Shown: positions 7,275 through 62,758, counted from the stretch's first letter. The stretch: DNA of 64,000 nucleotides from a virus (IMGVR_UViG_3300025598_000021), one strand, 5' to 3'. A program made the numbers and translations. Notes: generated from the letters alone by a model not told the origin.

Positions 7275-7817
7275 TTGATGAATATATTTTATCTTAGTGA
7301 GAATCCTTTAGAAGCTGCGCAGTGGATGGTTGACAAACATGTTGTCAAGATGATCCTAGAGTCTGCGCAGCTTTTGTCTACCGCTCATCGCATACTCGAC
7401 GGTGATGAGCAAGTAGAACTATCTGAGACTGGAAGAAAAAAGAAAAGGTATAAACTCTATGACGCACGTGAACCAGTTATGTACTCAGCTACGCACATTA
7501 ATCACCCGAGTGCTGTATGGTGCAGGAGCAGCGTTGAAAATTATAATTGGCTTGTAGACCATTTCTTCGCACTCATGCAGGAATATACTTATCGCTATGA
7601 CAAAGAGCATAAGTGTTATGGCGAACTGAGCTATCAGCTATCGTCTCCACCAAAGAATCTAGATAAATTTGATATGACTCCGATGCCGTCGTGTATGGAT
7701 GACAAGTATATTATATCTGCTAATCCTATCGATAACTATAGAAACTACTACAAGAACGGCAAGACGCATCTACATAAATGGAAAAGACGTGAGGCTCCTG
7801 CGTGGATTATCAACTAA
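7275..7817 (+). CDS. Pyrimidine-dimer DNA glycosylase-like protein (DenV-related family)
   Basis: MNIFYL..DKHVVKMILESAQLLSTAH..THINHPSAVW..EYTYRY. Confidence 0.75.
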   Translation: MMNIFYLSENPLEAAQWMVDKHVVKMILESAQLLSTAHRILDGDEQVELSETGRKKKRYKLYDAREPVMYSATHINHPSAVWCRSSVENYNWLVDHFFALMQEYTYRYDKEHKCYGELSYQLSSPPKNLDKFDMTPMPSCMDDKYIISANPIDNYRNYYKNGKTHLHKWKRREAPAWIIN

Positions 7818-8383
7818 AAGAAACTACAGTACTAGATAATATCATTCCAAAAGATCTACAAGATAAGTTTCATGATCTAGTCATGTCACAGTCTTTTAAG
7901 TTCTTAAAGGACATGTCTTATGCAGACGGCGATATTAAGTACCCGTCTTATGGTTTTAATTTGTTGTTTAAACACCCACAACATGGTATAATGTCTCCAC
8001 TATATGAGACTGTCTGTGTTCCTATAGTAAACGCTCTTCTAGAAGAACTAGTTCTTAAAGTAAACGATATCTACTATACTAGAGCGTTTCTTCAGGTACC
8101 GCTCGCAGATAACTTCTACAAGGGACAAAACGGGGCCCACATAGATATTCCAGATCCGCACTACGCTTGTGTCTATTATATGAATGACTCAGATGGCGAT
8201 ACTATTATCTATGAACAGAATATACACGACACTCCACCAGGATCAAAACATATCGATCTAGTAGAACATAAGAGAGTAACCCCTAAGAAGGGAAGAATAG
8301 CAATATTTGATGGAGCAAGATATCACTGCTCTAGTCAGCCGAGAGAAAATTATCGTTGTATTATTAACTTTGTTCTTGTATGA
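7802..8383 (+). CDS. 2OG-Fe(II) oxygenase
   Basis: HID..YYMNDSDGDT..FDGARYH..R facial triad and Arg. Confidence 0.8.
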   Translation: MDYQLKETTVLDNIIPKDLQDKFHDLVMSQSFKFLKDMSYADGDIKYPSYGFNLLFKHPQHGIMSPLYETVCVPIVNALLEELVLKVNDIYYTRAFLQVPLADNFYKGQNGAHIDIPDPHYACVYYMNDSDGDTIIYEQNIHDTPPGSKHIDLVEHKRVTPKKGRIAIFDGARYHCSSQPRENYRCIINFVLV

Positions 8384-8394
8384 AAGGATTAAAG

Positions 8395-8595
8395 ATGGAT
8401 GATAAGTTAGATGAAATTGCAAGACTGATGGCTCCAATCGATGAGCAGATTACTCTGTGTGAGAGCGGCAGTGAACAGATCATGCTTGCGTGTGGAATGA
8501 TGCAGAGAGTAAAAGAGATATTGAACCACCACCTTGGAGTAGAAGGCGCGGCTAATATCTTAAAGGAATATGTTAACACTACAACTCTACAGTGA
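8395..8595 (+). CDS. Hypothetical protein
   Basis: Compact ORF in a co-oriented operon. Confidence 0.55.
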   Translation: MDDKLDEIARLMAPIDEQITLCESGSEQIMLACGMMQRVKEILNHHLGVEGAANILKEYVNTTTLQ

Positions 8596-8602
8596 GGTTA
8601 TA

Positions 8603-9007
8603 ATGAGTGCTAATTGGGTAGACGACATTTATAAGATGCACCTACACTATAAGGTACATCCAGTGATTAATGTTATGGACAAAGAGAAACTAGCAAAATT
8701 TCTAGAGTTTCGCGCTAACTTTCTACAAGAAGAGTTGAATGAGCTTAAAGAAGCCAAGTCTGCGGAAGACGTAGTAGACGCGCTTATCGATCTATGCGTA
8801 GTGGCTATCGGCACGCTAGACGGATTTGGAGTAAACTCTTATAAAGCGTGGGACGAGGTTCTTAAGGCTAATATGAATAAGACTCCTGGAGTAAAGCCTT
8901 CACGACCTAACCCGCTTGGACTTCCAGATCTTATTAAGCCAGAGGGCTGGGTTGGACCTTCGCACGAAGGTAATCACGGACTTGTGAGTAAAATCTTCGA
9001 GGACTGA
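8603..9007 (+). CDS. All-alpha NTP pyrophosphohydrolase (MazG/PRA-PH-like; candidate dCTPase/dUTPase)
   Basis: LQEELNEL..VVDALIDLCVVAIG..ANMNK..DLIKPEGW; ATG 8603 follows GAGG. Confidence 0.75.
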   Translation: MSANWVDDIYKMHLHYKVHPVINVMDKEKLAKFLEFRANFLQEELNELKEAKSAEDVVDALIDLCVVAIGTLDGFGVNSYKAWDEVLKANMNKTPGVKPSRPNPLGLPDLIKPEGWVGPSHEGNHGLVSKIFED

Positions 9008-9008
9008 G

Positions 9009-9452
9009 ATGACCGATATTCGTTATGAAATGGGTAATATAGGTGAGCTTGCAGTAGAAGAACACTTTGATTCACAGAGAACAGACGATTGGTATGACTC
9101 TCGTAAGGATGGAATGATCAACAATATGTCCTACGAGGTCAAGACCTTTCGTCTAAATGGAAAGACTAAAGGATTTTGGATTGATAAGTCTCAATGGAAG
9201 AAAGTAGATGGAGTAGACATTCTTATCTTTGTGAGAGTACCTGAGACTACCGATGAAAGAGCTAGAATATACGTATGTATAAATCATAAAAACTGTTGGC
9301 AAAAAGCTTATAGAAACGATGGAACCGGAGTAAGATCTTATCCATTGACAAATTGCATATATATTGGTACAATAGGTGAAGAAAGATCATTACAACTATA
9401 TGAGCATTCTGTAAAGATCTCTAAACATAAGAGGTTAATCAATGCCGCATGA
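9009..9452 (+). CDS. PD-(D/E)xK nuclease-like protein
   Basis: GNIGELAV..KDG..YEVKT motif. Confidence 0.5.
   Translation: MTDIRYEMGNIGELAVEEHFDSQRTDDWYDSRKDGMINNMSYEVKTFRLNGKTKGFWIDKSQWKKVDGVDILIFVRVPETTDERARIYVCINHKNCWQKAYRNDGTGVRSYPLTNCIYIGTIGEERSLQLYEHSVKISKHKRLINAA
9345..9373 (+). promoter_or_regulatory. Sigma70-type early promoter upstream of the base-modification genes
   Basis: TTGACA-17 nt-TACAAT. Confidence 0.6.
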
Positions 9453-9849
9453 ACGTTACTCAGTCCAAGTTCTACAAGAGTGCATAGACCTCCAGAACAA
9501 GAAGTCTAACGACTATCAGAACCCAAACTCTACTATTAAGCAGGCTGACTATTATCCAAATGGTTGTCAGACTATCTTGGATACTATCCAAGCTAAAGTT
9601 CTTCGCATGCGTTCTGTTATGGAAGCTATGCAGTATGATAAGAACTATAAACCAAACTTCGAATCACTTGAAGATTCAGCTAAAGATCTTATCAACTACG
9701 CTTCTTTCTTTGTGACGTTCTCGCGTGGTAAGATGGAAGGTCAAGATCCTAATCGCGACTTTCTTAATAAACAAAAACAAGTAGTGTCATACACCAGCCA
9801 TACTATCACGGTAACAGCTAGTAATGAGGTAGAAGATGCAGGTTGCTAG
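9442..9849 (+). CDS. Nucleotide-modification-associated helical protein (Nmad1/DUF1599-like)
   Basis: KKSNDY..K..R..ESLEDSAKDLINYA pattern; adjacent to gp42-like gene. Confidence 0.55.
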   Translation: MPHERYSVQVLQECIDLQNKKSNDYQNPNSTIKQADYYPNGCQTILDTIQAKVLRMRSVMEAMQYDKNYKPNFESLEDSAKDLINYASFFVTFSRGKMEGQDPNRDFLNKQKQVVSYTSHTITVTASNEVEDAGC

Positions 9850-10486
9850 AGTCCAAGACATCAGAGAGTACTTCTACGATCAGTTAAAGAAACAAAACTT
9901 TGTAACTGATAAGACTGGTGTTAAGACTATCGAACTCATTGGCGCTAACTTCATTGCCAATGAGCCTACTATCTTTGGAGAAGTAAACGAAGATTATATC
10001 CGTAAAGAATTGGCTTGGTATAAGTCGATGTCTCTAAACGTTAATGATCTAGAAGACACGCCTGCTATATGGAAGAAAGTAGCAGACGAAGATGGTTATA
10101 TCAACTCAAACTACGGCTGGTGTATCTGGTCGCACGATAATCACTATCAATATCATAACGCGTTGAATGAGCTTAATAAGAATCCAGACTCACGCCGCGC
10201 TATCATGATCTATACAAGACCATCGATGTGGCACGACTATGACTATCACGGCATGTCAGATTTTATGTGTACTAACACCGTGCAGTATTTGATCCGTGAT
10301 AATAGACTTAACGCTGTAGTTCAGATGAGATCTAACGACGTAGTCTATGGCTATCGCAATGACTACGCTTGGCAGGACTACGTATTAGACAAGATGGCAA
10401 ATGAGTTAAAAGTTGCTCGCGGCGATATTTATTGGAATGTAGGATCTCTTCATGTCTATGAAAGACACTTCGACTTGGTCATCTAA
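9836..10486 (+). CDS. gp42: dCMP hydroxymethylase (T4 gp42-type)
   Basis: DKTGVKTIELIGA, INSNYGW, NPDSRRAIMIYTRPSM, GMSDFMCTNTVQYLIRD, MRSNDVVYGYRNDYAWQ closely match T4 gp42 as recalled, with Asp (dCMP specificity) where ThyA has Asn. Confidence 0.9.
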   Translation: MQVARVQDIREYFYDQLKKQNFVTDKTGVKTIELIGANFIANEPTIFGEVNEDYIRKELAWYKSMSLNVNDLEDTPAIWKKVADEDGYINSNYGWCIWSHDNHYQYHNALNELNKNPDSRRAIMIYTRPSMWHDYDYHGMSDFMCTNTVQYLIRDNRLNAVVQMRSNDVVYGYRNDYAWQDYVLDKMANELKVARGDIYWNVGSLHVYERHFDLVI

Positions 10487-10928
10487 GTATTTAAATCTAG
10501 CAAAACACGTAGCGACTTGGTCTAAAGATCCATCCACTAAAATCGGCGCTGTAGCTGTAGGAGAACGCGGCCAGATACTAAGTACTGGCTATAATGGTTT
10601 TCCTAGAAATATTGAAGACAGACCGGACAGGCTAAACGATAGAGAGTCAAAGTATAAGTACGTAGTTCACGGTGAGATGAACTGCATATATAATGCGACA
10701 CTCAATGGTGTGAGTTTAAATGAAGCAGACTTATACGTGTATGGATTGCCTATATGCTCTGAGTGCGCTAAGGGTGTAATACAGGTCGGCATCAAGCGCG
10801 CTTTCATGTGCTATCCTGAGAATACAAGAGACAAGTGGAAAGACTCTTATAAGATTACTTCTGAGATGTTTAATGAAGTCGGAATATATCATGAGGTCGT
10901 GTATGAGAGCGATAGTGGTAGGAATTAA
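10458..10928 (+). CDS. cd: dCMP deaminase
   Basis: WSKDPSTKIGA, GYNGFPR, HGEMN, PICSEC. Confidence 0.9.
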   Translation: MKDTSTWSSKYLNLAKHVATWSKDPSTKIGAVAVGERGQILSTGYNGFPRNIEDRPDRLNDRESKYKYVVHGEMNCIYNATLNGVSLNEADLYVYGLPICSECAKGVIQVGIKRAFMCYPENTRDKWKDSYKITSEMFNEVGIYHEVVYESDSGRN

Positions 10929-11265
10929 TCCTTCTAATCATAAGACTGTCGATAAGCACTGTATTACCATAAAGCGTCTATTCAAATGGATGGACGACTT
11001 GAATATCAAGTATTTCTCGTTCGTAAACTGTATACCAAGTCCAGGAAGATATAATAAATCTGACATCGACTACGATATGATAGACGTCTGCACGAGAGAC
11101 TATAAAGTAGTACTGGCGCTTGGTAACTTTCCATCTGAAGCTTTAAACAAAATTAACGTAAAGCACTTTAAATTGCCACATCCTTCTGGGCTAAATAGAC
11201 AATTAAATGACGTCAAATATGAATTAGACATGTTGAGACAGTGCAGGAACTATATCTATGGCTAA
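10903..11265 (+). CDS. Uracil-DNA glycosylase superfamily protein
   Basis: VVGINPS, LALG, LPHPSGLN motifs. Confidence 0.7.
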   Translation: MRAIVVGINPSNHKTVDKHCITIKRLFKWMDDLNIKYFSFVNCIPSPGRYNKSDIDYDMIDVCTRDYKVVLALGNFPSEALNKINVKHFKLPHPSGLNRQLNDVKYELDMLRQCRNYIYG

Positions 11266-12352
11266 AAAGATTTTAATAACTGGTTTTAATAAAGAGCAGT
11301 GCACACGCGACTACTTTCTTACCAAAGAACTTAGAATTTTAAACTCACACTACTCTCTAATTCGATGTCTAGAAGACATGGGATTCGAGGTAGAGCAGCG
11401 ACCTGTAGACATCGGCGAAGACCTATCCGGATACGATCGCGTAATCATATATCTACATTCTATACAGTCGTTCTGCCAATTCTTGTATGACGGTCTATAC
11501 GCTATTAAGGCTCGTCCGGACGCGATTCTAGCGTTTGATGACTGGCAGGTAGATCAGGTCATGGCGTGTTTTCCACAGTTTAAGCGTAACTTACTCGACG
11601 AAGAGAAGTATAATCCATTTAGACAATATCTACTAGATCTCTATTATGGATCTTCAGACGAAGCCACTATTCGCGCTCACAAGCAAGACTATCTAGAAAG
11701 TATAGAGCAGGTACTATCTTATCAAAACAAGTTGATGATCTGTGCCTACTCAGGCGGTGACCTAAGCAAGTTTAAACTCGGATGGTCAAGCGACAAGTTG
11801 TTCAGCTTTAATCCTAACCCCTACAATCTTAATCGTGGACCGCATAACAACTTTGGCGAAGAATCTACAGGTCTAAACGCTTTCTTTGAGGAGGACACTC
11901 CTAAAGAGAAGATCAGGGCTTGGGTGTTCTCATCGCTGAATCACAAGAAAAACGATGCAGTTGTTAAGAAGAATAATTTTACGTGGGACGTCGCCATGTA
12001 TGGTCCACGACGTGGTGAATATAAAGCGCAGCGTCTAAAAGAACCTGATATGTGCAGAGAGTATGTAAAGCACTGGGGTTGTCTATTACCAAAATACTAT
12101 CACGCCGGCTCAGGATGGTGGCGATCTAGAGTACAGCAGGTGGCAGACGCCGGCTCTATTCTACTATGTGACGACGTTGAAGGCGTAATCTATGGCGACG
12201 CGTATGTCGGTCTAAACATTGCAGATATAGAAAGCATGGACAACACGCAGCTAGAAAAGCTGGCTAAATATCAGCACGACTGTTTGTATGATAATCATCC
12301 GCTAGACAAGAAAGTGCAGCGCGATGAATTGACTAAGATCTTGGAGATTTAA
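11258..12352 (+). CDS. Putative GT-B glycosyltransferase (DNA-modifying candidate)
   Basis: Rossmann-like KILITG start; C-terminal GWWRSRVQQVADAGSILL resembles the GT-B donor-binding segment; context next to gp42. Confidence 0.5.
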   Translation: MAKKILITGFNKEQCTRDYFLTKELRILNSHYSLIRCLEDMGFEVEQRPVDIGEDLSGYDRVIIYLHSIQSFCQFLYDGLYAIKARPDAILAFDDWQVDQVMACFPQFKRNLLDEEKYNPFRQYLLDLYYGSSDEATIRAHKQDYLESIEQVLSYQNKLMICAYSGGDLSKFKLGWSSDKLFSFNPNPYNLNRGPHNNFGEESTGLNAFFEEDTPKEKIRAWVFSSLNHKKNDAVVKKNNFTWDVAMYGPRRGEYKAQRLKEPDMCREYVKHWGCLLPKYYHAGSGWWRSRVQQVADAGSILLCDDVEGVIYGDAYVGLNIADIESMDNTQLEKLAKYQHDCLYDNHPLDKKVQRDELTKILEI

Positions 12353-13552
12353 ATGAAGCACGCCGCAATCATTCCACTCATCGGTGGAGAAGCGCTAGCA
12401 TCAGCGGCCGTATTTGGTAGTAGACCAGACTATATTTTAAGTTATACGCCATTTAAAAATCACGATGCGCACCTGCTTAATTATTGGGACCACGAAGTTC
12501 CATACTATCTACTAGACGAAGGTGGAAGGCATCCTCATAAAGTAGACGTCGTGTCTAGCGTGTGTCCGTGCGCCGGCCTGTCAATGTTGTCTACCGGCTA
12601 TGGCGAACACAATCCAAATAATAAATGGATGTTAGAATCTGCAGAATACGTATTAGGTGAGATGCAGCCTAAAGTATTCTGGGGTGAGAACGCTCCTGCG
12701 CTCGCTGGAAAGATCGGAGAACCTATTAGAAACCAACTAATTGATATTGGTAATAAACACGGTTATACGATGACTCTCTATCGCACTAAGAGTCTTCTAC
12801 ACGGCGTGCCACAAGTTAGAGAGCGAACGTTCTACTTCTTCTGGAAAGGTGATAAGACACCAATTCTTAACTACTACAACGTTCCATACGATAAGATCGA
12901 AGACGTAATATTGAGAATCAAAGCTAATTCTCAGATGGAACCTATCAATAAGAATAAGCCGAGCGAAGACCCGTATTATAAGTATCTCCTAGAAGTAGTC
13001 TATGGTGGTATCACTCATCGCGAACATTTTGATAAAATCGATCCTAATAACATATCCGTGAGAAGCTATGATTCGAAAAGTCTTATCGAAACTTTTGGCC
13101 ATGATTATAGGCAAGTCGGCGCGTGGATGGAAGCAAATGGATATGAAAGAGAAGTCAGTAAGTGTGATCGTATGTTTAACAAGCTCGCATCGGGTAAAAA
13201 CATCATGCGTCGCGGTACTATCGTACCGAAAGAATACATCGGTGCTTTTGTCGGTCACTACCCTACCATGCTTACGCACCCGCACGAAGACAGATACATA
13301 ACATACAGAGAGGCGATGTCTATCATGGGTCTGCCTGAAGACTTTGAACTTCTAGACCCAAAGAAAAACTACAACCATATCTGTCAAAACGTTCCATTTC
13401 GCACTGCAGTAGACATGGCTAAAGAAGTCAAGGCAGTACTAGAAGGTGAGAGAGAATTTGTTGACAATCGCTTAGTTTATCAGTATAATAGTAATAGGAA
13501 ACACGTGTTAGCTGATAAAAGACAGAACAGTCTAGCTGAATTTTTTAATTGA
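12353..13552 (+). CDS. C5-cytosine methyltransferase homolog with atypical motif I
   Basis: Motif IV VCPCAGLS, VI GENAP, VIII GVPQVRER, IX/X REAMSIMGLPEDF..QNV; motif I reads IIPLIGG instead of FxGxGG. Confidence 0.75.
   Translation: MKHAAIIPLIGGEALASAAVFGSRPDYILSYTPFKNHDAHLLNYWDHEVPYYLLDEGGRHPHKVDVVSSVCPCAGLSMLSTGYGEHNPNNKWMLESAEYVLGEMQPKVFWGENAPALAGKIGEPIRNQLIDIGNKHGYTMTLYRTKSLLHGVPQVRERTFYFFWKGDKTPILNYYNVPYDKIEDVILRIKANSQMEPINKNKPSEDPYYKYLLEVVYGGITHREHFDKIDPNNISVRSYDSKSLIETFGHDYRQVGAWMEANGYEREVSKCDRMFNKLASGKNIMRRGTIVPKEYIGAFVGHYPTMLTHPHEDRYITYREAMSIMGLPEDFELLDPKKNYNHICQNVPFRTAVDMAKEVKAVLEGEREFVDNRLVYQYNSNRKHVLADKRQNSLAEFFN
13461..13489 (+). promoter_or_regulatory. Sigma70-type early promoter
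   Basis: TTGACA-17 nt-TATAAT. Confidence 0.7.
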
Positions 13553-13559
13553 TGGAGGA

Positions 13560-13979
13560 GTGATGAGCGTCTTTAAGAATAACCCTACTATGGTAAACGG
13601 CGGAGGAACCATGATTGGATCTATAACCGCCGATGATTTATACAAGTTCGAGAACGGCAAGACATATCATGCTAGCGTTAGTTCTTCGGCTTCAGTACCA
13701 AATATCCAGTATAAATACAACGAAGGTCGTATCATTGACGACTTTCGCGCCTATATCGATAAGACATATGGGCAGCACTATATGACCGAAGACCAAAATA
13801 TAGAATGTTTTGACGTGTGGCTAGCTCTCGGCGATTCAATGCCTACCTTCAGAAACACAGCTATTAAGTATCTCTGGCGCTATGGAAAGAAAAATGGCAC
13901 CAATAGAGACGACTTGATGAAAGTATTGCATTATACTCTAATGATGTTGTATGTAGACCATTACAAGAAAGGTGAATAA
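13560..13979 (+). CDS. DUF3310/SaV-like protein
   Basis: TYGQHY..IECFD..AIKYLWRYGKKNG..DLMKVLHY. Confidence 0.65.
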   Translation: MMSVFKNNPTMVNGGGTMIGSITADDLYKFENGKTYHASVSSSASVPNIQYKYNEGRIIDDFRAYIDKTYGQHYMTEDQNIECFDVWLALGDSMPTFRNTAIKYLWRYGKKNGTNRDDLMKVLHYTLMMLYVDHYKKGE

Positions 13980-13982
13980 AAT

Positions 13983-14840
13983 ATGGAAATTCAGATCCCA
14001 GTTGAAAAGTTGCGCGAACGAGGTCTCTTTGTAGCAACTCCAATGTATGGCGGACAGTGCGCCGGTATGTTTGCACGATCCGTTGCAGATCTATCTGCTC
14101 TATGTACAAAGTATGGTATTCCTCTACAGTTCTACTTCCTGTTTAATGAGTCATTGATCACGCGCGCTAGAAACTATTGCTGCGATGAATTCATGCGCTC
14201 ACAGACGCAGCACATGATGTTTATTGACTCCGACATCGGCTTTAATCCACAAGACGTTATCGCTCTTATGGCGCTGCAGGCCAATGATGAAGATAAGTAT
14301 GATATCATCGGCGGTCCATATCCTAAGAAGTGTATCTCTTGGGAAAAGATCAAGCACGCTGTCGATAAGGGTGTCGCTGACGAAGATCCTAACGTACTTG
14401 AGAAGTTCGTTGGTGACTACGTCTTTAATCCTAAGGGCGATCAGCAGAGTATCCCACTCAGCGAGCCAGTCGAGGTTCTCGAGATCGGAACGGGCTTCAT
14501 GATGGTCACTAAGAAAGCCATGCAGAAGTTCTACGACAGCTACAAGGACCAGTACTCATACAAGCCAGATCACGTTCGCACAGAGCACTTCGACGGCTCA
14601 CGTGAGATTCTAATGTTCTTCCAGGCTGAAGTAGATCCAGCGTCTAAGCGCTATCTCTCAGAAGACTATTGGTTCTGTCAGAAAGCTCAGCAGATCGGTC
14701 TTAAGACTTGGTTCTGTCCGTGGATGGTTCTACAACACGTTGGTACGTATATCTTCGGCGGTTCACTTGCTGATATTGCTTCTGTCGGTGCAGCTGCAAC
14801 CGCTGATCCATCAAAAATTGGTGGTAAAAAGAAGAAGTAA
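13983..14840 (+). CDS. GT-A (GT2-like) glycosyltransferase
   Basis: ATPMYGG, NESLITRARN, FIDSDIGF (DxD), GTGFMM, LSEDYWFC. Confidence 0.8.
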   Translation: MEIQIPVEKLRERGLFVATPMYGGQCAGMFARSVADLSALCTKYGIPLQFYFLFNESLITRARNYCCDEFMRSQTQHMMFIDSDIGFNPQDVIALMALQANDEDKYDIIGGPYPKKCISWEKIKHAVDKGVADEDPNVLEKFVGDYVFNPKGDQQSIPLSEPVEVLEIGTGFMMVTKKAMQKFYDSYKDQYSYKPDHVRTEHFDGSREILMFFQAEVDPASKRYLSEDYWFCQKAQQIGLKTWFCPWMVLQHVGTYIFGGSLADIASVGAAATADPSKIGGKKKK

Positions 14841-14857
14841 GTGAAAGGAACTATATA

Positions 14858-15514
14858 ATGCAGATAAGTGTTAATACAATAAACGTATTAAAGAATTTCT
14901 CATCTATCAATCCTTCAATTATCATCAACGAAGGTAACGTTATTGAGACTATCTCTAATATGAAGACAGTCAAGGCAAAGGCGAAGGTCGATACGACCTT
15001 CCCACGCCGCTTTGCGATGTATAACCTCAATAAGCTGATCTCTATTCTCAGCCTATATGACAACGCAGACGTGCGATTTGAAGATAACAATCTAGTTATC
15101 TCAGACGGTGATAATAAGATCACCAACTTGACATACTCTGACGAGTCTACTATCATCAAACCACCAAAGACGATCAATCTACCAAGCGTAGATGTTTCAG
15201 TGTCTGTGACCAATGAAAATATCAAGGACGTCGAGAAGGCTCTTGGAGTCCTATCAGTTCGTAATATTATAATCTCAGGTGATGGTGAGTTCGTATATCT
15301 CCAGGCCGCTGACGGTGGTAACCCATCTGGCGATGTTTATTCCATCAAGCTTGGTATGTCAGAAAAGAAGTTCAAGGCCGTGTTTAAGGCTGAGAACATT
15401 AAAGTACTTCCTGGTAACTACACGATTGAAATTAGTTCTAAAGGAATTTCAAGGTTCTACAACGACGACGTCGAATACTTCATCGCCGTTGAGTCTGAGC
15501 TTTCGAAATTCTAA
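14858..15514 (+). CDS. gp45: Sliding clamp gp45
   Basis: TINVLKNFSSINPSI start, YFIAVE end; upstream of gp44. Confidence 0.9.
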   Translation: MQISVNTINVLKNFSSINPSIIINEGNVIETISNMKTVKAKAKVDTTFPRRFAMYNLNKLISILSLYDNADVRFEDNNLVISDGDNKITNLTYSDESTIIKPPKTINLPSVDVSVSVTNENIKDVEKALGVLSVRNIIISGDGEFVYLQAADGGNPSGDVYSIKLGMSEKKFKAVFKAENIKVLPGNYTIEISSKGISRFYNDDVEYFIAVESELSKF

Positions 15515-22812: not shown

Positions 22813-23236
22813 TCCTAAGTTCAAGCAGCGTATGGCAGAAAAAGTCAACATAGATAGAAATCATGACGTGCCATACGTTGCTGGTTATTCAAAGGATGGT
22901 AAGACTATCTTCGTGGATCGTCATCTATTAAAGATGAAAGACGAGCATGATATTGAGCCTTATCTCTTAGTTCATGAGAAGACAGAGAAAGCGCTTATAG
23001 ATCTATTTGGATTAGACTATCAGCACGCCCATCATATAGCTATGGAGCAGGAAAAAGAAGCTGTAGCTAAAGGTGGGCTGGAGTGGAGTGCGTACGAGAA
23101 GCACTATAATAAGTTCATAAAGGGATGTTCACACGAGAAACTTCAAAAGGTGTCATCCAGTCTTGACATGACACCTTATAAAGATGAGAAAGACTTTAAT
23201 CTTCTCAGAGATATGGAAAAGCACGAAGTTAAGTAG
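22778..23236 (+). CDS. Hypothetical protein, possible metal-binding (LVHEKTE..HAHH)
   Basis: Last + strand ORF before the strand switch. Confidence 0.55.
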   Translation: MHSFKIHKYVNDPKFKQRMAEKVNIDRNHDVPYVAGYSKDGKTIFVDRHLLKMKDEHDIEPYLLVHEKTEKALIDLFGLDYQHAHHIAMEQEKEAVAKGGLEWSAYEKHYNKFIKGCSHEKLQKVSSSLDMTPYKDEKDFNLLRDMEKHEVK

Positions 23237-23888
23237 TAAATATTTCTATTACTCTTGCGACATAATCAGATCTATTTTTAACAAACAGCTGTGGTTCTTC
23301 ATGATCTACAGCTATCATTATTGCTATCTGTGGAATCGCAATCTTATACATCCATTCGAACATCATAGAATAGACGGTAGTCTGGAGAAAGTAGGACTCG
23401 ATCCACTCTTCTTTCTTTAGTTTGCGAGACGTCTTAAAGTCTATAACTGAAGGCACCCCGTCGAACTCTGCGATGAGATCGCACCTTCCCGCCGTCTTCA
23501 ACACTTTAGAATACAGCGGTAGTTCTATACCGAGAAGGTTATCAACATGCTTATCAAGAAGATGTTTAATAGAATGGAAAGCGTCCACACCAGAAGGCAT
23601 TCCTCCCTTGATATAATCTTCTTCATTGAGTACGTATCTCTCAGCCATGGAGTGGACTGAGGTACCACGTCTAGCCGCTTGTGTGGAAATCTTATTAGCT
23701 TGCTCTTCTCCAACTCTCTTCCTCCATTCTAAAAGACCAGTCTTATCGAGCTTTTCACCTAAAACTGTAGTCACCGAACGAAATTTACTTCCGTCCGGTA
23801 ACACATAGAATCTTCCATTATCAGTGTTCTCTGTAGTTAGACTTACTTCAGGAACTAAGTTATGCTTGAATATCTTTCTGGTACCCAT
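23229..23888 (-). CDS. PD-(D/E)xK exonuclease (Cas4/RecB-like)
   Basis: SVTTVL..WRKRVG..RGTSVH..AGRCD..IDFKTS..YFLQ. Confidence 0.85.
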   Translation of the reverse strand: MGTRKIFKHNLVPEVSLTTENTDNGRFYVLPDGSKFRSVTTVLGEKLDKTGLLEWRKRVGEEQANKISTQAARRGTSVHSMAERYVLNEEDYIKGGMPSGVDAFHSIKHLLDKHVDNLLGIELPLYSKVLKTAGRCDLIAEFDGVPSVIDFKTSRKLKKEEWIESYFLQTTVYSMMFEWMYKIAIPQIAIMIAVDHEEPQLFVKNRSDYVARVIEIFTT

Positions 23889-39850: not shown

Positions 39851-40543
39851 TTATTTCTTCACATCTTTTAATGACGGAAATTCTTTAACTAATTGACTCC
39901 AAGCGCTACTAGCTACTTCGCGATGTTCTTTCTGAGTTCCTTCTGACATTCTTATATCGCAGTAGTGTATCCAAGATCTAAGCGTGCCATTCATATACAT
40001 TCTAGAAATAGTCAAACCTTCTGGTAATACCGCTCTTGCCTGTTCTTTTGCAATACCGTTTGCTATTGCCCACTTATAGCCAAGAATACATTCGTGAATC
40101 AACTGCTCTTGTTTTACCTTCCAGTCTCTATGTAACTCTTTATCTCCAGTTTCAATAGAATTTTGTCTATTCTTTGTATCTTGCAGACGCGCTTCTCTAA
40201 TACCAAAACCTAAATCTGAAGTTGGATCGGCGTAGCGCTGACTGAATTCTTGAAATGTAAATGAGCGATGTCTGAGAATCTGGCGAGCGATGTCGCGTGT
40301 GGTATTTATCTCCATGACTATATTGACCATCTCAAATGGAGACCAGTGCTTATTTTTAACAAGATACTTTAGTAGCTTATCAGCAGTGAGATGGTTGTTC
40401 TGGTTAGACGGGTTAGACACCCTAGCGACGTATGCGACGAACTCATCGACCGTCAGGGCTCTCTGTCTATTGTAGAACCATTTAGAATACTCTGTCTCAT
40501 ATAACTTAGGCTGTGTAACAGCGACGATCTTAGCGTCATTCAT
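39851..40543 (-). CDS. thyX: Flavin-dependent thymidylate synthase
   Basis: HWSPFE, RQILRHRSFTFQEFSQRY, TQKEHR. Confidence 0.95.
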   Translation of the reverse strand: MNDAKIVAVTQPKLYETEYSKWFYNRQRALTVDEFVAYVARVSNPSNQNNHLTADKLLKYLVKNKHWSPFEMVNIVMEINTTRDIARQILRHRSFTFQEFSQRYADPTSDLGFGIREARLQDTKNRQNSIETGDKELHRDWKVKQEQLIHECILGYKWAIANGIAKEQARAVLPEGLTISRMYMNGTLRSWIHYCDIRMSEGTQKEHREVASSAWSQLVKEFPSLKDVKK

Positions 40544-60082: not shown

Positions 60083-60269
60083 TTGCCTTTTCTTTTAAAT
60101 ATTCATCAATACTTATCTGTTTAACCTCGCTGGCAGCGCCAAATGACTGCTCGGTCCAAAAAGTTTTAGTATATACTCTTTCTTGTTTTAATTTTTCTCT
60201 TAGATTTTCTCTATCTTCAAAAGACATTTTATCAAAATCTAATTTTTTATTCTTTTTTGACTTCTTCAT
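60069..60269 (-). CDS. Hypothetical protein
   Basis: ATG overlapping the gp43 stop, GGAGG RBS. Confidence 0.5.
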   Translation of the reverse strand: MKKSKKNKKLDFDKMSFEDRENLREKLKQERVYTKTFWTEQSFGAASEVKQISIDEYLKEKANENE

Positions 60270-62758
60270 CCGAAAAAATCCTCCAGTGTTGATTTCTGTT
60301 CTATGTCCCACCCGATCACTTCAGTGATTGATTTAAGTGGATCTAGAAATGATTTGTTAAACTGCATCTCTTTATCGATATACTTATCAATGTTAAATTC
60401 TTTTGGAAGCTCATCAGGAGTGGCTATAACGTTCTCATTAATAACAGGATTAGGAGTAACGAGATATACGAACCTGATCTTGTCTCCATCTACAATTGGC
60501 GGTATGTTCTTCATGTTATGCTTCTTTAACAGATTATTAAAGAGCAACGCACCCTTAATATGCATTGGAGTAGACTTCTTATAGACTCTAGATCCATCCT
60601 TGTACTTGTCTATTCCATTAACGCCGCGCGGGAACGCAATCACCTCAAACGGTAGAGTCTTAAACTCGTTCTTAAAGTTAGTAATAAACTCTCTGAGATC
60701 GTCTTGAGTACCGTTCATGATGATCTCTAGACCGTTCTTAATATTCTCCCTGCACGCGTGTGGAGTAGAAGATCTAATAGCCTCAATACCCTGAAGTTTA
60801 AGTTTTGGCTTCTCATAGCGTACTCCCTCGACGTCCCACGCGTTGAGTATGTACATCTTCTTACCACGCCATATTCCCTTGTTAGCGATGGTCTCACGCT
60901 TCATCTTCATCTTCTGCTGATACGCGTTCATCATATCGGCGAGTTCTTGGTAGCACTTGTCGATATACTGCTGCAGCTTCTTCTCACAGAATATATCTAG
61001 GGCATTGACTATCTTCTTCTCGTCTACGTCACCCATTGTAGCTACGAGTTTATCCATGCGAACGTAGATAGAATCGGTATCAGACGCGATGACATAATCT
61101 TCATCTGTCTTCAGTATCTTATTCATGTATTGATTGATTTTCTTTTCAATCCAGCGAATAGACAGCTGACCAGAAGTAGTGATGGCTTCTGCAAGATCGA
61201 AGTTAAACCAGCGAAAGTACTGGTTAGCGAGAGCGCCGTAAGCTGAGTTTAACTGAATCTTTTTTGCAAGCTGCATGTTATGATATCTAGCTACTAGCTT
61301 TTCGTCTTCTAGAGTCTTTGACTTCTCATATCGCTGCTTGGCTTCCAGCATCAGTTTCTTATACTTAGTACGATCGTCGTACATTCTTTCCATAAGTGCG
61401 GGAAGGAAACCCTGCTTGTCTTTTTTAAACGTACAACCGTTTGCGGCGTATGCGTATTTACTATCTTTATATTCAAAATTACCATCAAGCAGCCAGTCTA
61501 CGCCTCCGGAAGGACCGAGTTTTCCAGTGAGTGTCTCAGGACTGATATTGTACTGCATGATTAGATGTGGATAAAGAGAGTTCAAGTCAAAAGATACGAC
61601 CCACTTGCTCAGACCGATCTTTGGATCTTTAACATATCCGCCGACAAGACCACCCTCAAACACCTGCTTCTTAGACTGCGGGATGACTATCTTCTGATCT
61701 AGCAGATAGTTGTGGATGATGATATCCCACGGGCGAACGGTAGCCATAGTGTCAGTATAGTTCACTTTAGCGTCATATGCGATAGCCATGACCTGCTCGA
61801 TGAACTTTAACTTATCTTCTAGCTTTTGAACTAGAAGAACGTCGTGTATGTTATACTCCATATACTTTTGAAAGTTATTCTTATAGAATTCATTGAGAGA
61901 TCCATATTCAGAATAGTCTAACTTTCTCTCACTTAATTCTATCTGAGCGATATAGTCAAGTTTATAAGACTCTTGATTACCGAACGAGAACTTACGATAG
62001 AGTCGATAGTAGTCTAGATCAGACACGCCGACGATCTCGTACACCTTATTCTCTTTACCGCGAAACTCTACTACCTTTTCATTTAGCATCTTCCAAGGAG
62101 ATAGTCTTTTAGCTTCTCTTTCATTATATAGAGTCGTAATCCTGTTAATAAGATATGGGATATCAAAAAATTCAATATTCCATCCCGTGATGATGTCCGG
62201 CATCCACGCGTCTGATTCCCAGACTTGAAGAAATTTCTGAATAAGGTCATATTCGTCTTTACATTTCAAGTAGAATGAATTTTCACTGGTCGGTTTGAAG
62301 TCTTTAACGCCAAAAGACGCAGTCTTTCCACGACTGTGAATAGTAATTGCAGTTATAGGCTGATCTGCTTTATCCACATCAGGAAAACCTACGACATCTT
62401 CACCACCACACTCAATATCTAGAGTAACAACGTTGATCGTTTTAGGATCGTAGTCTATGTCTCCTTGATAGTTATCGTAGATATAAAGATAAGGATAGTT
62501 AGTAAGACCGAATACCTCGAACCCACCAACATCCTTATGCTCGTCAATGAAGTCTCTTGCATCTCTGATAGAGTCAAACTCGATCTTAGCGACCGGCCTG
62601 TTATCTAGACTCTTATACCCGCTATTTGTATTATTGCGATCGGTAACAAAGAGATAGGGCTTATAGGGCACTACCTCTTTGAACTTTAATCCTTTATCGT
62701 AACCTCTAACATAGATCTTACTTCCATATTGAAATACACTCGTGTAGAATCGCGACAT
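60266..62758 (-). CDS. gp43: Family B DNA polymerase gp43 (uninterrupted)
   Basis: LDIE exonuclease, SFDLNSLYPH, KIQLNSAYG, SDTDS, KKMY motifs. Confidence 0.97.
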   Translation of the reverse strand: MSRFYTSVFQYGSKIYVRGYDKGLKFKEVVPYKPYLFVTDRNNTNSGYKSLDNRPVAKIEFDSIRDARDFIDEHKDVGGFEVFGLTNYPYLYIYDNYQGDIDYDPKTINVVTLDIECGGEDVVGFPDVDKADQPITAITIHSRGKTASFGVKDFKPTSENSFYLKCKDEYDLIQKFLQVWESDAWMPDIITGWNIEFFDIPYLINRITTLYNEREAKRLSPWKMLNEKVVEFRGKENKVYEIVGVSDLDYYRLYRKFSFGNQESYKLDYIAQIELSERKLDYSEYGSLNEFYKNNFQKYMEYNIHDVLLVQKLEDKLKFIEQVMAIAYDAKVNYTDTMATVRPWDIIIHNYLLDQKIVIPQSKKQVFEGGLVGGYVKDPKIGLSKWVVSFDLNSLYPHLIMQYNISPETLTGKLGPSGGVDWLLDGNFEYKDSKYAYAANGCTFKKDKQGFLPALMERMYDDRTKYKKLMLEAKQRYEKSKTLEDEKLVARYHNMQLAKKIQLNSAYGALANQYFRWFNFDLAEAITTSGQLSIRWIEKKINQYMNKILKTDEDYVIASDTDSIYVRMDKLVATMGDVDEKKIVNALDIFCEKKLQQYIDKCYQELADMMNAYQQKMKMKRETIANKGIWRGKKMYILNAWDVEGVRYEKPKLKLQGIEAIRSSTPHACRENIKNGLEIIMNGTQDDLREFITNFKNEFKTLPFEVIAFPRGVNGIDKYKDGSRVYKKSTPMHIKGALLFNNLLKKHNMKNIPPIVDGDKIRFVYLVTPNPVINENVIATPDELPKEFNIDKYIDKEMQFNKSFLDPLKSITEVIGWDIEQKSTLEDFFG

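Follow-up and report, generated by a model that had tools for sequence, protein, structure and literature searches.

Does the block of genes directly before the sliding-clamp gene gp45 of IMGVR_UViG_3300025598_000021, an uncultured freshwater T4-like phage, encode a new kind of cytosine modification system, or another version of the T4 one? The window analyzed here, 64,000 nucleotides long, covers in reverse-strand orientation the first 64 kb of an IMG/VR virus record of 125.5 kb (estimated completeness 74%), and the block consists of ten plus-strand open reading frames (ORFs) at 8570-14840, co-oriented and each overlapping or abutting the next. A preliminary description of this DNA had read them as a non-T4 cluster in which two glycosyltransferases (GTs) build a new base from 5-hydroxymethylcytosine (hmC). 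The present analysis indicates that the cluster is mostly another member of the T4 scheme of hmC glycosylation rather than a new modification system, and that its methylase look-alike, a homolog of C5-cytosine methyltransferases (MTases), is a real and widespread anomaly. All ten previously described ORFs were recovered on the plus strand directly before gp45 and are listed below, together with the clamp gene, the thymidylate synthase gene thyX and the presumed polymerase gene.

8570-9007, plus strand: MazG/PRA-PH-type all-alpha nucleoside triphosphate (NTP) pyrophosphohydrolase, candidate dCTPase in the role of T4 gp56 (Pfam PF01503, E 2.6e-8)
9009-9452, plus strand: small protein with a PD-(D/E)xK-like motif (GxxGE...D..KD...VKT, conserved in 16 homologs)
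9442-9849, plus strand: conserved helical protein directly upstream of gp42 (PHROG_18404, E 2.6e-11; PHROG_1485)
9836-10486, plus strand: predicted 5-hydroxymethyl-dCMP synthase of T4 gp42 type (T4 1b49, E 1.1e-88; PF00303, E 2e-21)
10452-10928, plus strand: dCMP deaminase, T4 cd-like (PF00383, E 6e-17; PHROG_174, E 1e-37)
10873-11265, plus strand: minimal protein of the uracil-DNA glycosylase (UDG) superfamily, about 120-130 aa (PF03167, E 6e-4, below cut-off)
11258-12352, plus strand: GT-B glycosyltransferase of 364 aa, similar to T4 beta-glucosyltransferase (BGT), candidate hmC-DNA glycosyltransferase (AlphaFold2, Foldseek and VIA-align)
12353-13552, plus strand: C5-cytosine MTase-fold enzyme of an hmC-linked subfamily, the methylase look-alike (PF00145, 68 bits against a cut-off of 22)
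13560-13979, plus strand: DUF3310-like small protein (PF11753, 23.5 bits against a cut-off of 24; PHROG_480, E 4e-25)
13983-14840, plus strand: probable GT-A-type nucleotide-sugar transferase (PHROG_1574, E 7e-58; DSD motif)
14858-15514, plus strand: gp45 sliding clamp (PHROG_223, E 3.5e-60; 36-39% identity to the clamps of phages DLP_6 and Cr30)
39851-40543: ThyX (E 1.6e-40)
60266-62758, minus strand: presumed DNA polymerase (gp43) of 830 aa, its identity assumed from size and the tail ...QKSTLEDFFG

Database support is strong for four of the ten ORFs (the MazG/PRA-PH pyrophosphatase, the thymidylate synthase (TS)-fold gene, the dCMP deaminase and the C5-MTase homolog) and is weak or at motif level for the UDG-like, DUF3310, GT-A, Nmad1-like and PD-(D/E)xK labels; an NCBIfam scan returned nothing for seven of the eight proteins tested.

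The TS-fold protein aligns over residues 6-215 with residues 8-225 of T4 dCMP hydroxymethylase (1b49), shares 64% identity with Tevenvirinae gp42 and carries its catalytic Cys in FMCTN. Its signature SDFMC...RSND...RND places Asp at the positions equivalent to ThyA L143, D169 and N177, the same as in T4. It has been reported that Asp at the N177 position confers dCMP specificity, that Asp or Glu at the L143 position denotes hydroxymethyl rather than methyl transfer, and that some phage gp42-like enzymes make 5-hydroxy-dCMP and are marked by Asn at the D169 position (PMC13326640). The three Asp residues thus make the window enzyme a predicted 5-hydroxymethyl-dCMP synthase by all available sequence criteria, and because of the Asp at the D169 position a 5-hydroxy-dCMP synthase of the RB69 type was rejected.

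This enzyme is embedded in further nucleotide-pool genes. The pyrophosphohydrolase also matches PHROG_671 (E 1.8e-17) and the MazG-like protein DR2231 (E 6e-4), and its metal-binding EE..E and D..LIDL motifs are kept across 29 homologs; its presumed preference is for dCTP. Among 80 related IMG/VR loci, gathered through the methylase look-alike and sharing 58-96% identity with it, a pyrophosphatase of this type lies upstream of gp42 in 34 and a dCMP deaminase adjoins gp42 in 49. A TS homolog with the Asp signature, a deaminase and a PRA-PH protein together form a published signature of contigs with modified cytosine, in some of which the deaminases act on modified cytosine nucleotides (10.1101/2024.12.05.627091). 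The preliminary description had named each of these functions, including the dCMP-specific Asp of gp42 (RNDYAW) and ThyX as the source of dTMP, and its reading of them as a pre-replicative route to hmC is supported.

In contrast, the claimed lack of resemblance between the GT-B protein and the T4 glucosyltransferases was not confirmed. The AlphaFold2 model of the GT-B protein has a predicted local distance difference test (pLDDT) score of 90.3 and finds T4 BGT as its best Foldseek match (1nzd, E 1.4e-7); in VIA-align it superposes end to end on T4 BGT 1j39 (Z 18.0, root-mean-square deviation 3.6, 294 residues aligned, model residues 3-364 against chain residues 1-351), ahead of glycogen synthase (Z 16.8) and T4 alpha-glucosyltransferase (AGT; Z 15.6). 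The model therefore points to a BGT-like GT-B enzyme, by a small margin over generic GT-B folds. The family corresponds to PHROG_14998 and has homologs in gp42-encoding Aeromonas T4-like phages. Sequence searches of the PDB with the GT-B and GT-A proteins gave nothing useful. A search of the genome with the BGT profile PF09198 at E 0.1 gave no match, though its controls were silent too, and the AGT and Tmk Pfam models had no match in this 74% complete record, in a search where some controls were likewise silent; these blanks do not indicate absence.

A survey of the cluster in related phages, as had been suggested at the outset, revealed a constant gp42 frame around a hypervariable decoration slot. 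Across the 80 loci the order is pyrophosphatase, 9442-like gene, gp42, deaminase, UDG-like gene (optional), slot, methylase look-alike, DUF3310 gene (optional), GT-A gene, gp45 and gp44, and the distance from gp42 to the look-alike varies from 1.1 to 6.0 kb. Slot contents were compared in 54 related metagenomic loci: 22 carry a true T4 AGT (PF11440, E 2e-79), 14 carry a BGT-like GT, with or without UDP-galactopyranose mutase and an epimerase, and a further cassette is a single 400-aa protein of unassigned family. In these freshwater T4-like phages the hmC-decorating enzymes thus come as interchangeable cassettes, at least six in number, at a single swap-in slot; the window, with its BGT-like copy alone, has one of the simplest versions. 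With a BGT-like fold in the window and AGT in the same slot of sister loci, the label "non-T4" does not hold.

Other slots differ more widely. Genes for an NAD-dependent epimerase and a UDP-galactopyranose mutase (PF03275, E 2e-48) flank the BGT-like GT in L058, L069, L070, L074, L055 and L078, suggesting galactofuranosyl-hmC in the phages concerned. The slot of L026 (5961-8890; also L027, L028, L035, L053, L062, L072 and L087) holds a myo-inositol-1-phosphate-synthase-like gene, a small ORF, a gene whose product matches the helical domain of 5-hydroxymethyldeoxyuridine (5-hmdU) DNA kinase (PF18723, E 2e-11) and then an ORF of 350-385 aa, suggesting hypermodification of hmC by phosphorylation rather than glycosylation. 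The slot of L014 (1888-5974; also L016, L018, L020, L021 and L022) contains four genes of about 390, 335, 290 and 360 aa, none of which has a Pfam match.

The genes downstream of the look-alike have a different distribution. Synteny with Stenotrophomonas phage DLP_6 and Caulobacter phage Cr30 over the block gp46, deformylase, then GT-A-like gene, gp45, gp44, gp62 and RegA places the phage in their branch of the T4 superfamily; none of 50,697 phage records matched the cluster by megablast, so that no close cultured relative is seen. The GT-A-like protein has homologs at the same position in DLP_6 (68% identity) and Cr30 (57%), and neither of these phages has gp42 or the look-alike. Its GT-A assignment is weakly supported, by the DSD motif, weak matches to Anp1 (E 0.0016) and GT21 (E 0.016) and an Atlas neighbor annotated as a nucleotide-diphospho-sugar transferase. 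The DUF3310-like protein, just under its Pfam cut-off, has homologs in 466 phage records, nearly all from cyanophages (Synechococcus/Prochlorococcus). Since the one gene occurs in phages lacking gp42 and the other is widespread in cyanophages, both are treated as backbone genes and not as parts of the hmC module. The DUF3310 protein was also considered as a missing hydroxymethyl-dCMP kinase and rejected: the PHROG families named "nucleotide kinase" match only its DUF3310 segment, and its homologs are common in cyanophage records.

The methylase look-alike is atypical, as the preliminary description had stated. Its structural model (pLDDT 88) shows a complete C5-MTase fold, and a profile search of 1.84 billion representatives puts the family at 374 or more clusters (50% identity): E <= 1e-30 is reached by 374 clusters and E <= 0.001 by 1603, most of them aligned end to end. 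In 131 full-length representatives, PLIGG, Pro25, Ser30-Tyr31, Phe34, (C/P)PCAGLS, ENAP, HGxPQxRxRTF, HPxEDR, RE and QNVP are near-invariant, and motifs IV (PC), VI (ENAP), VIII (QxRxR) and IX (RE) are invariant, so the apparatus that attacks cytosine appears intact. The S-adenosylmethionine (SAM)-binding motif I, FxGxGG, and the acidic residue of motif II are, by sequence and predicted secondary structure, replaced by PLIGG and Ser30-Tyr31, and motif X reads QNVP instead of the canonical GNxVP, with Asn346 kept. Pfam and PDB profile alignments begin only at about residue 60, and the NCBIfam dcm score is 36 bits against a cut-off of 100.65 bits. The N-terminal Rossmann half and a Gly-rich loop are nevertheless retained, and in some members the Pfam alignment already begins at profile position 10. 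No description of a PLIGG/QNVP MTase subfamily in hmC phages was found in the literature searched. A carboxymethyltransferase of the CmoX type was rejected as an identity for this protein, which has CPCA instead of SPPC and Asn346 instead of Arg at the position of HhaI N304. Fusion partners within the family were uninformative apart from one, a C-terminal zf-CXXC domain (PF02008, E 7e-7) in a 598-aa member, P0346; in eukaryotes this domain reads unmethylated CpG.

The subfamily keeps company with TS genes of the hydroxymethyl (hm) type in phages that are deeply diverged from one another. Among the close loci with at least 5 kb of upstream sequence, gp42 was present in 42 of 42, a count limited by the phylogenetic non-independence of these loci. 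In a distant clade of 68 loci (31-40% identity to the window protein; contexts from IMG/VR only), a TS homolog lies within 10 kb in 26, and the 26 aligned TS ORFs of that scan all show the Asp/Asp/Asp hm signature, in three distinct contexts (NKDFVCT, SDYPCT and MSDFMCT), where three canonical TS controls have Leu/Asp/Asn. Two long contigs of this clade with no TS gene nearby encode an hm-type TS about 55 kb away. Among cultured phages, the look-alike occurs only in the S-TIM5 group and in Pseudoalteromonas phage XG4: S-TIM5 encodes, 2.4 kb away, a TS homolog whose N177-equivalent residue is Asp, and in XG4 a gp42 homolog lies 4.6 kb upstream. Thus, judged from its active-site residues, every TS homolog seen beside a subfamily member appears to be dCMP-specific.

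The neighborhoods of the distant look-alikes also contain epimerase/dehydratase and GT1/GT2-like genes. In L095 (8908-10020) and its neighbors, probable fragments of jumbo phages, the end of an epimerase/dehydratase gene extends into the look-alike, which lies among GT1/GT2-like genes; UvsX-like and DnaB-like genes are near, and an hm-type TS lies tens of kilobases away.

The look-alike ends in ...NSLAEFFN, resembling the tail of the presumed gp43 (...STLEDFFG), and among the ORFs of more than 130 aa only these two proteins end in S/T-L-x-x-F-F. Within the close family, conservation of L394 and F397 reaches 90% or more; the strict pattern is found in only 26 of 132 diverse representatives, marking the tail as a feature of T4-like clades. 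We infer that it is a putative clamp-binding peptide and propose gp45 as its partner. A complex model of look-alike residues 360-399 with gp45 scored 0.55 against 0.00 for the best control, with a partner pLDDT of 40 and contact agreement of at least 36%; the mark applied is reached by 58 of 80 solved complexes and two of 110 mismatches, and since passes at 0.60 or below comprise only seven of the 80 solved complexes and both mismatches, this score is weak. A complex of the RB69 clamp with a polymerase peptide is reported to have been solved, and the model may be recalling that structure. Elsewhere in the window, a 78-aa ORF without a PHROG match (23184-23420, plus strand) ends in ...GLDPLFFL, a clamp-binding-like tail, and could encode a gp33-like late-transcription co-activator.

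These observations can be combined into a mechanism. The module would have entered a Cr30/DLP_6-like backbone of the T4 superfamily, with gp46 and deformylase on one side and GT-A, gp45 and gp44 on the other. The MazG-type pyrophosphatase would remove dCTP, gp42 would make 5-hydroxymethyl-dCMP, and hmC would be incorporated during replication, with the deaminase feeding dUMP to ThyX or trimming the modified pool. The BGT-like enzyme would then glycosylate hmC on DNA, and since no sugar-nucleotide genes lie beside it, a host UDP-hexose is the likeliest donor. The UDG-fold protein may police uracil or 5-hydroxymethyluracil arising from action of the deaminase on modified nucleotides. The look-alike, riding gp45 behind the fork, would convert residual unmodified cytosines to a C5-substituted form (methyl or hydroxymethyl) and so close gaps in the protection of the DNA. 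This patching role is suggested by four points: hmC cannot be methylated, the catalytic residues of the look-alike are strongly constrained, the look-alike stays constant next to a variable decoration slot, and its tail resembles that of the polymerase. The core of this scheme, hmC followed by glycosylation, is considered likely; patching by the look-alike is a tentative proposal, judged less likely than not; and for the statement as a whole, a T4-type cytosine-replacement module with BGT-like glycosylation and a clamp-tethered look-alike that patches cytosines, the chances seem evenly balanced.

Several observations weigh against this scheme, in addition to the non-independence of the close loci and the weak tail-gp45 score. 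The 11258 protein exceeds generic GT-B enzymes by no more than about 1 Z unit, has 13-14% identity to BGT, and matches no Pfam model even at E 10, the BGT profile included. A 36% identical homolog occurs in phage C48C1 (Kyanoviridae, L001:7995-9029), which lacks any TS homolog, showing that this GT family is not restricted to gp42 phages; the C48C1 gene lies between two other ORFs of 340-470 aa of unassigned family. The 125.5-kb record, itself 74% complete and with some search controls silent, yielded no T4 gp1-type dNMP kinase, Tmk or other kinase for hydroxymethyl-dCMP, a blank that does not indicate absence. In the distant clade, 30 loci extend 9 kb or more on both sides, and 18 of these lack a nearby TS homolog; two shorter fragmentary contigs have none at all. 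Tevenvirinae make hmC DNA without a look-alike, which has a match in only 11 of 50,697 phage records.

Three other explanations of the cluster were considered. Serial action of both GT-like proteins and the atypical MTase on hmC, giving a new hypermodified base unlike that of the T-even phages, would fit the tight, co-oriented packing of the genes and the position of the GT-A gene, which follows the look-alike in 66 of the 80 loci, and GT-A-fold DNA glycosyltransferases are known in phages (10.1101/2023.12.21.572611). The GT-A gene occupies the same position in DLP_6 and Cr30 without gp42 or the look-alike, however; many cyanophage records contain DUF3310, the fold of the GT-B protein is BGT-like and sister loci carry the T4 AGT. 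With GT-A a syntenic backbone gene, only one GT remains behind the earlier notion that two of them turn hmC into a new base, which is not supported, and serial action is regarded as improbable.

The remaining two explanations concern the look-alike itself. It might act on hmC, attack of its Cys at C6 activating the 5-hydroxymethyl group for nucleophile exchange or other non-methyl chemistry and producing a second cytosine derivative at some sites. The non-canonical motifs I, II and X are conserved in the 131 representatives, in which the cytosine-attacking motifs are invariant, and this chemistry would also accord with the late start of the profile alignments, the low dcm score and the strict link to hm-type TS genes; in vitro, SAM-free C5-MTases reportedly can join thiols to hmC or take its hydroxymethyl group off (Liutkeviciute et al.). 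We nonetheless think it unlikely, given that the hydroxyl of hmC is already the target of the adjacent GTs, that no constant neighbor gene could supply a dedicated nucleophile or cofactor, and that the retained Rossmann half, Gly-rich loop and alignments from position 10 leave SAM binding possible. A PF00145 score well above cut-off, with all catalytic motifs and the motif X Asn in place, is what would be expected of an ordinary orphan SAM-dependent methylase of the Dcm type, acting against restriction, fixed in these lineages by chance and with no tie to hmC or the clamp; phage orphan methylases are common, and the 18 fully flanked distant loci without a nearby TS homolog agree with this. Such a methylase would find almost no substrate where hmC replaces C, and the conserved position beside the decoration slot, the hm type of all 26 aligned neighboring TS genes, the match to the polymerase tail and the changes in motifs I and II that define the whole subfamily all leave it with little credibility. 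A broader variant, in which the subfamily is a replisome-tethered, DNA-level cytosine modifier that works without ordinary SAM methylation, for example by hydroxymethylating residual cytosine in nascent DNA or derivatizing hmC, is judged rather doubtful.

Comparison with characterized systems places the cluster nearest to T4, whose hmC pathway uses the gp56 dCTPase, gp42 dCMP hydroxymethylase, cd deaminase, gp1 kinase and the alpha- and beta-glucosyltransferases. Both have the same gp42 active-site signature, the window has a MazG-superfamily pyrophosphatase and a dCMP deaminase adjoining gp42, its GT-B protein has BGT as its best match and its relatives carry a true AGT in the slot. Unlike T4, the window obtains dTMP from ThyX rather than td, shows no gp1-type kinase in its incomplete record, has its genes in one block beside gp45 where those of T4 are dispersed, uses a GT outside the BGT sequence family and adds a UDG-fold protein and a C5-MTase-fold enzyme. 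The glycosyl-5-hydroxycytosine systems of RB69, DLP3 and RL38J1 (PMC13326640) also combine a dCMP-specific TS homolog with a dCTPase and GT-B transferases, and RL38J1 shares a UDP-galactopyranose mutase with some relatives of the window; their synthases, however, produce 5-hydroxy-dCMP and have Asn where ThyA has D169, whereas the window enzyme and the 26 aligned neighbors keep Asp.

With M.HhaI and M.HaeIII (PF00145) the look-alike shares the whole fold, the PC nucleophile, ENxP, QxRxR, RE and the motif X Asn, and it differs from them in PLIGG, in Ser-Tyr for the Glu-aromatic pair of motif II, in QNVP, in its clamp-type tail and in its link to hydroxymethyl-dCMP synthases. Another phage C5-MTase homolog, CmoX of cyanophage S-B43, is a structural neighbor (PDB 8yf3, Foldseek E 1.5e-12); it has been repurposed for carboxymethyl transfer, works with CmoA and is recognized by SPPC together with Arg in place of HhaI N304, in contrast to CPCA and Asn346 in the window protein (PMC12783734). 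Post-replicative hmC pathways in which phage MTases act with 5mYOX/TET enzymes and GTs likewise place a C5-MTase-family gene beside DNA glycosyltransferases (PMC8256090; 10.1101/2023.12.21.572611), but there the MTase makes 5-methylcytosine for TET, whereas hmC in the window would come from gp42. A search for Tet_JBP (PF12851) that covered four related contigs gave no match, but its positive controls were silent too, so that it carries no information on TET.

For the small accessory ORFs, the preliminary description stood in part. The claim that 9009 encodes a PD-(D/E)xK nuclease-like protein agrees with the conserved motif pattern and finds no Pfam, PHROG or NCBIfam match; the gene occurs in 21 of the 80 loci, and a nuclease against unmodified DNA is a speculative function for its product. 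The Nmad1-like label of 9442 comes down to a weak likeness (DUF1599, E 0.05 only). Its PHROG_18404 family is one in which a 9442-like domain follows a MazG domain, and 9442-like genes, with conserved DYQN and NFESLED..KD.INY, are present in 41 of the 80 loci. The UDG-like protein scores 20.4 bits in Pfam against a cut-off of 24.3, and the pattern GxNPS...F.N...ALG...HPS..NR..N, which includes motif A (GxNPx) and motif B (HPS), is kept in 15 homologs; in the Atlas it has a score of 0.97 and a TM-score of 0.91 to virus-only UDG-like clusters. The gene occurs in about 20 of the 80 loci, and Met11 may be its real start. A 193-aa ORF immediately before the module (7802-8383, plus strand) matches PHROG_274, "DNA endonuclease V" (E 6e-29), with a weak hit to a 2OG-Fe(II) oxygenase PHROG as well; only four of the 80 related loci have it.

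For the biology of these phages, the swap-in slot provides a map for finding new cytosine adducts. If either editing at the fork or a new C5 chemistry is true, it would explain how modification becomes complete, and the look-alike may offer a new enzyme for epigenetic tools. Were the look-alike subfamily indeed a replisome-tethered modifier that acts without ordinary SAM methylation, it would constitute a previously unrecognized and widespread third component of the pre-replicative hmC pathways of aquatic phages.

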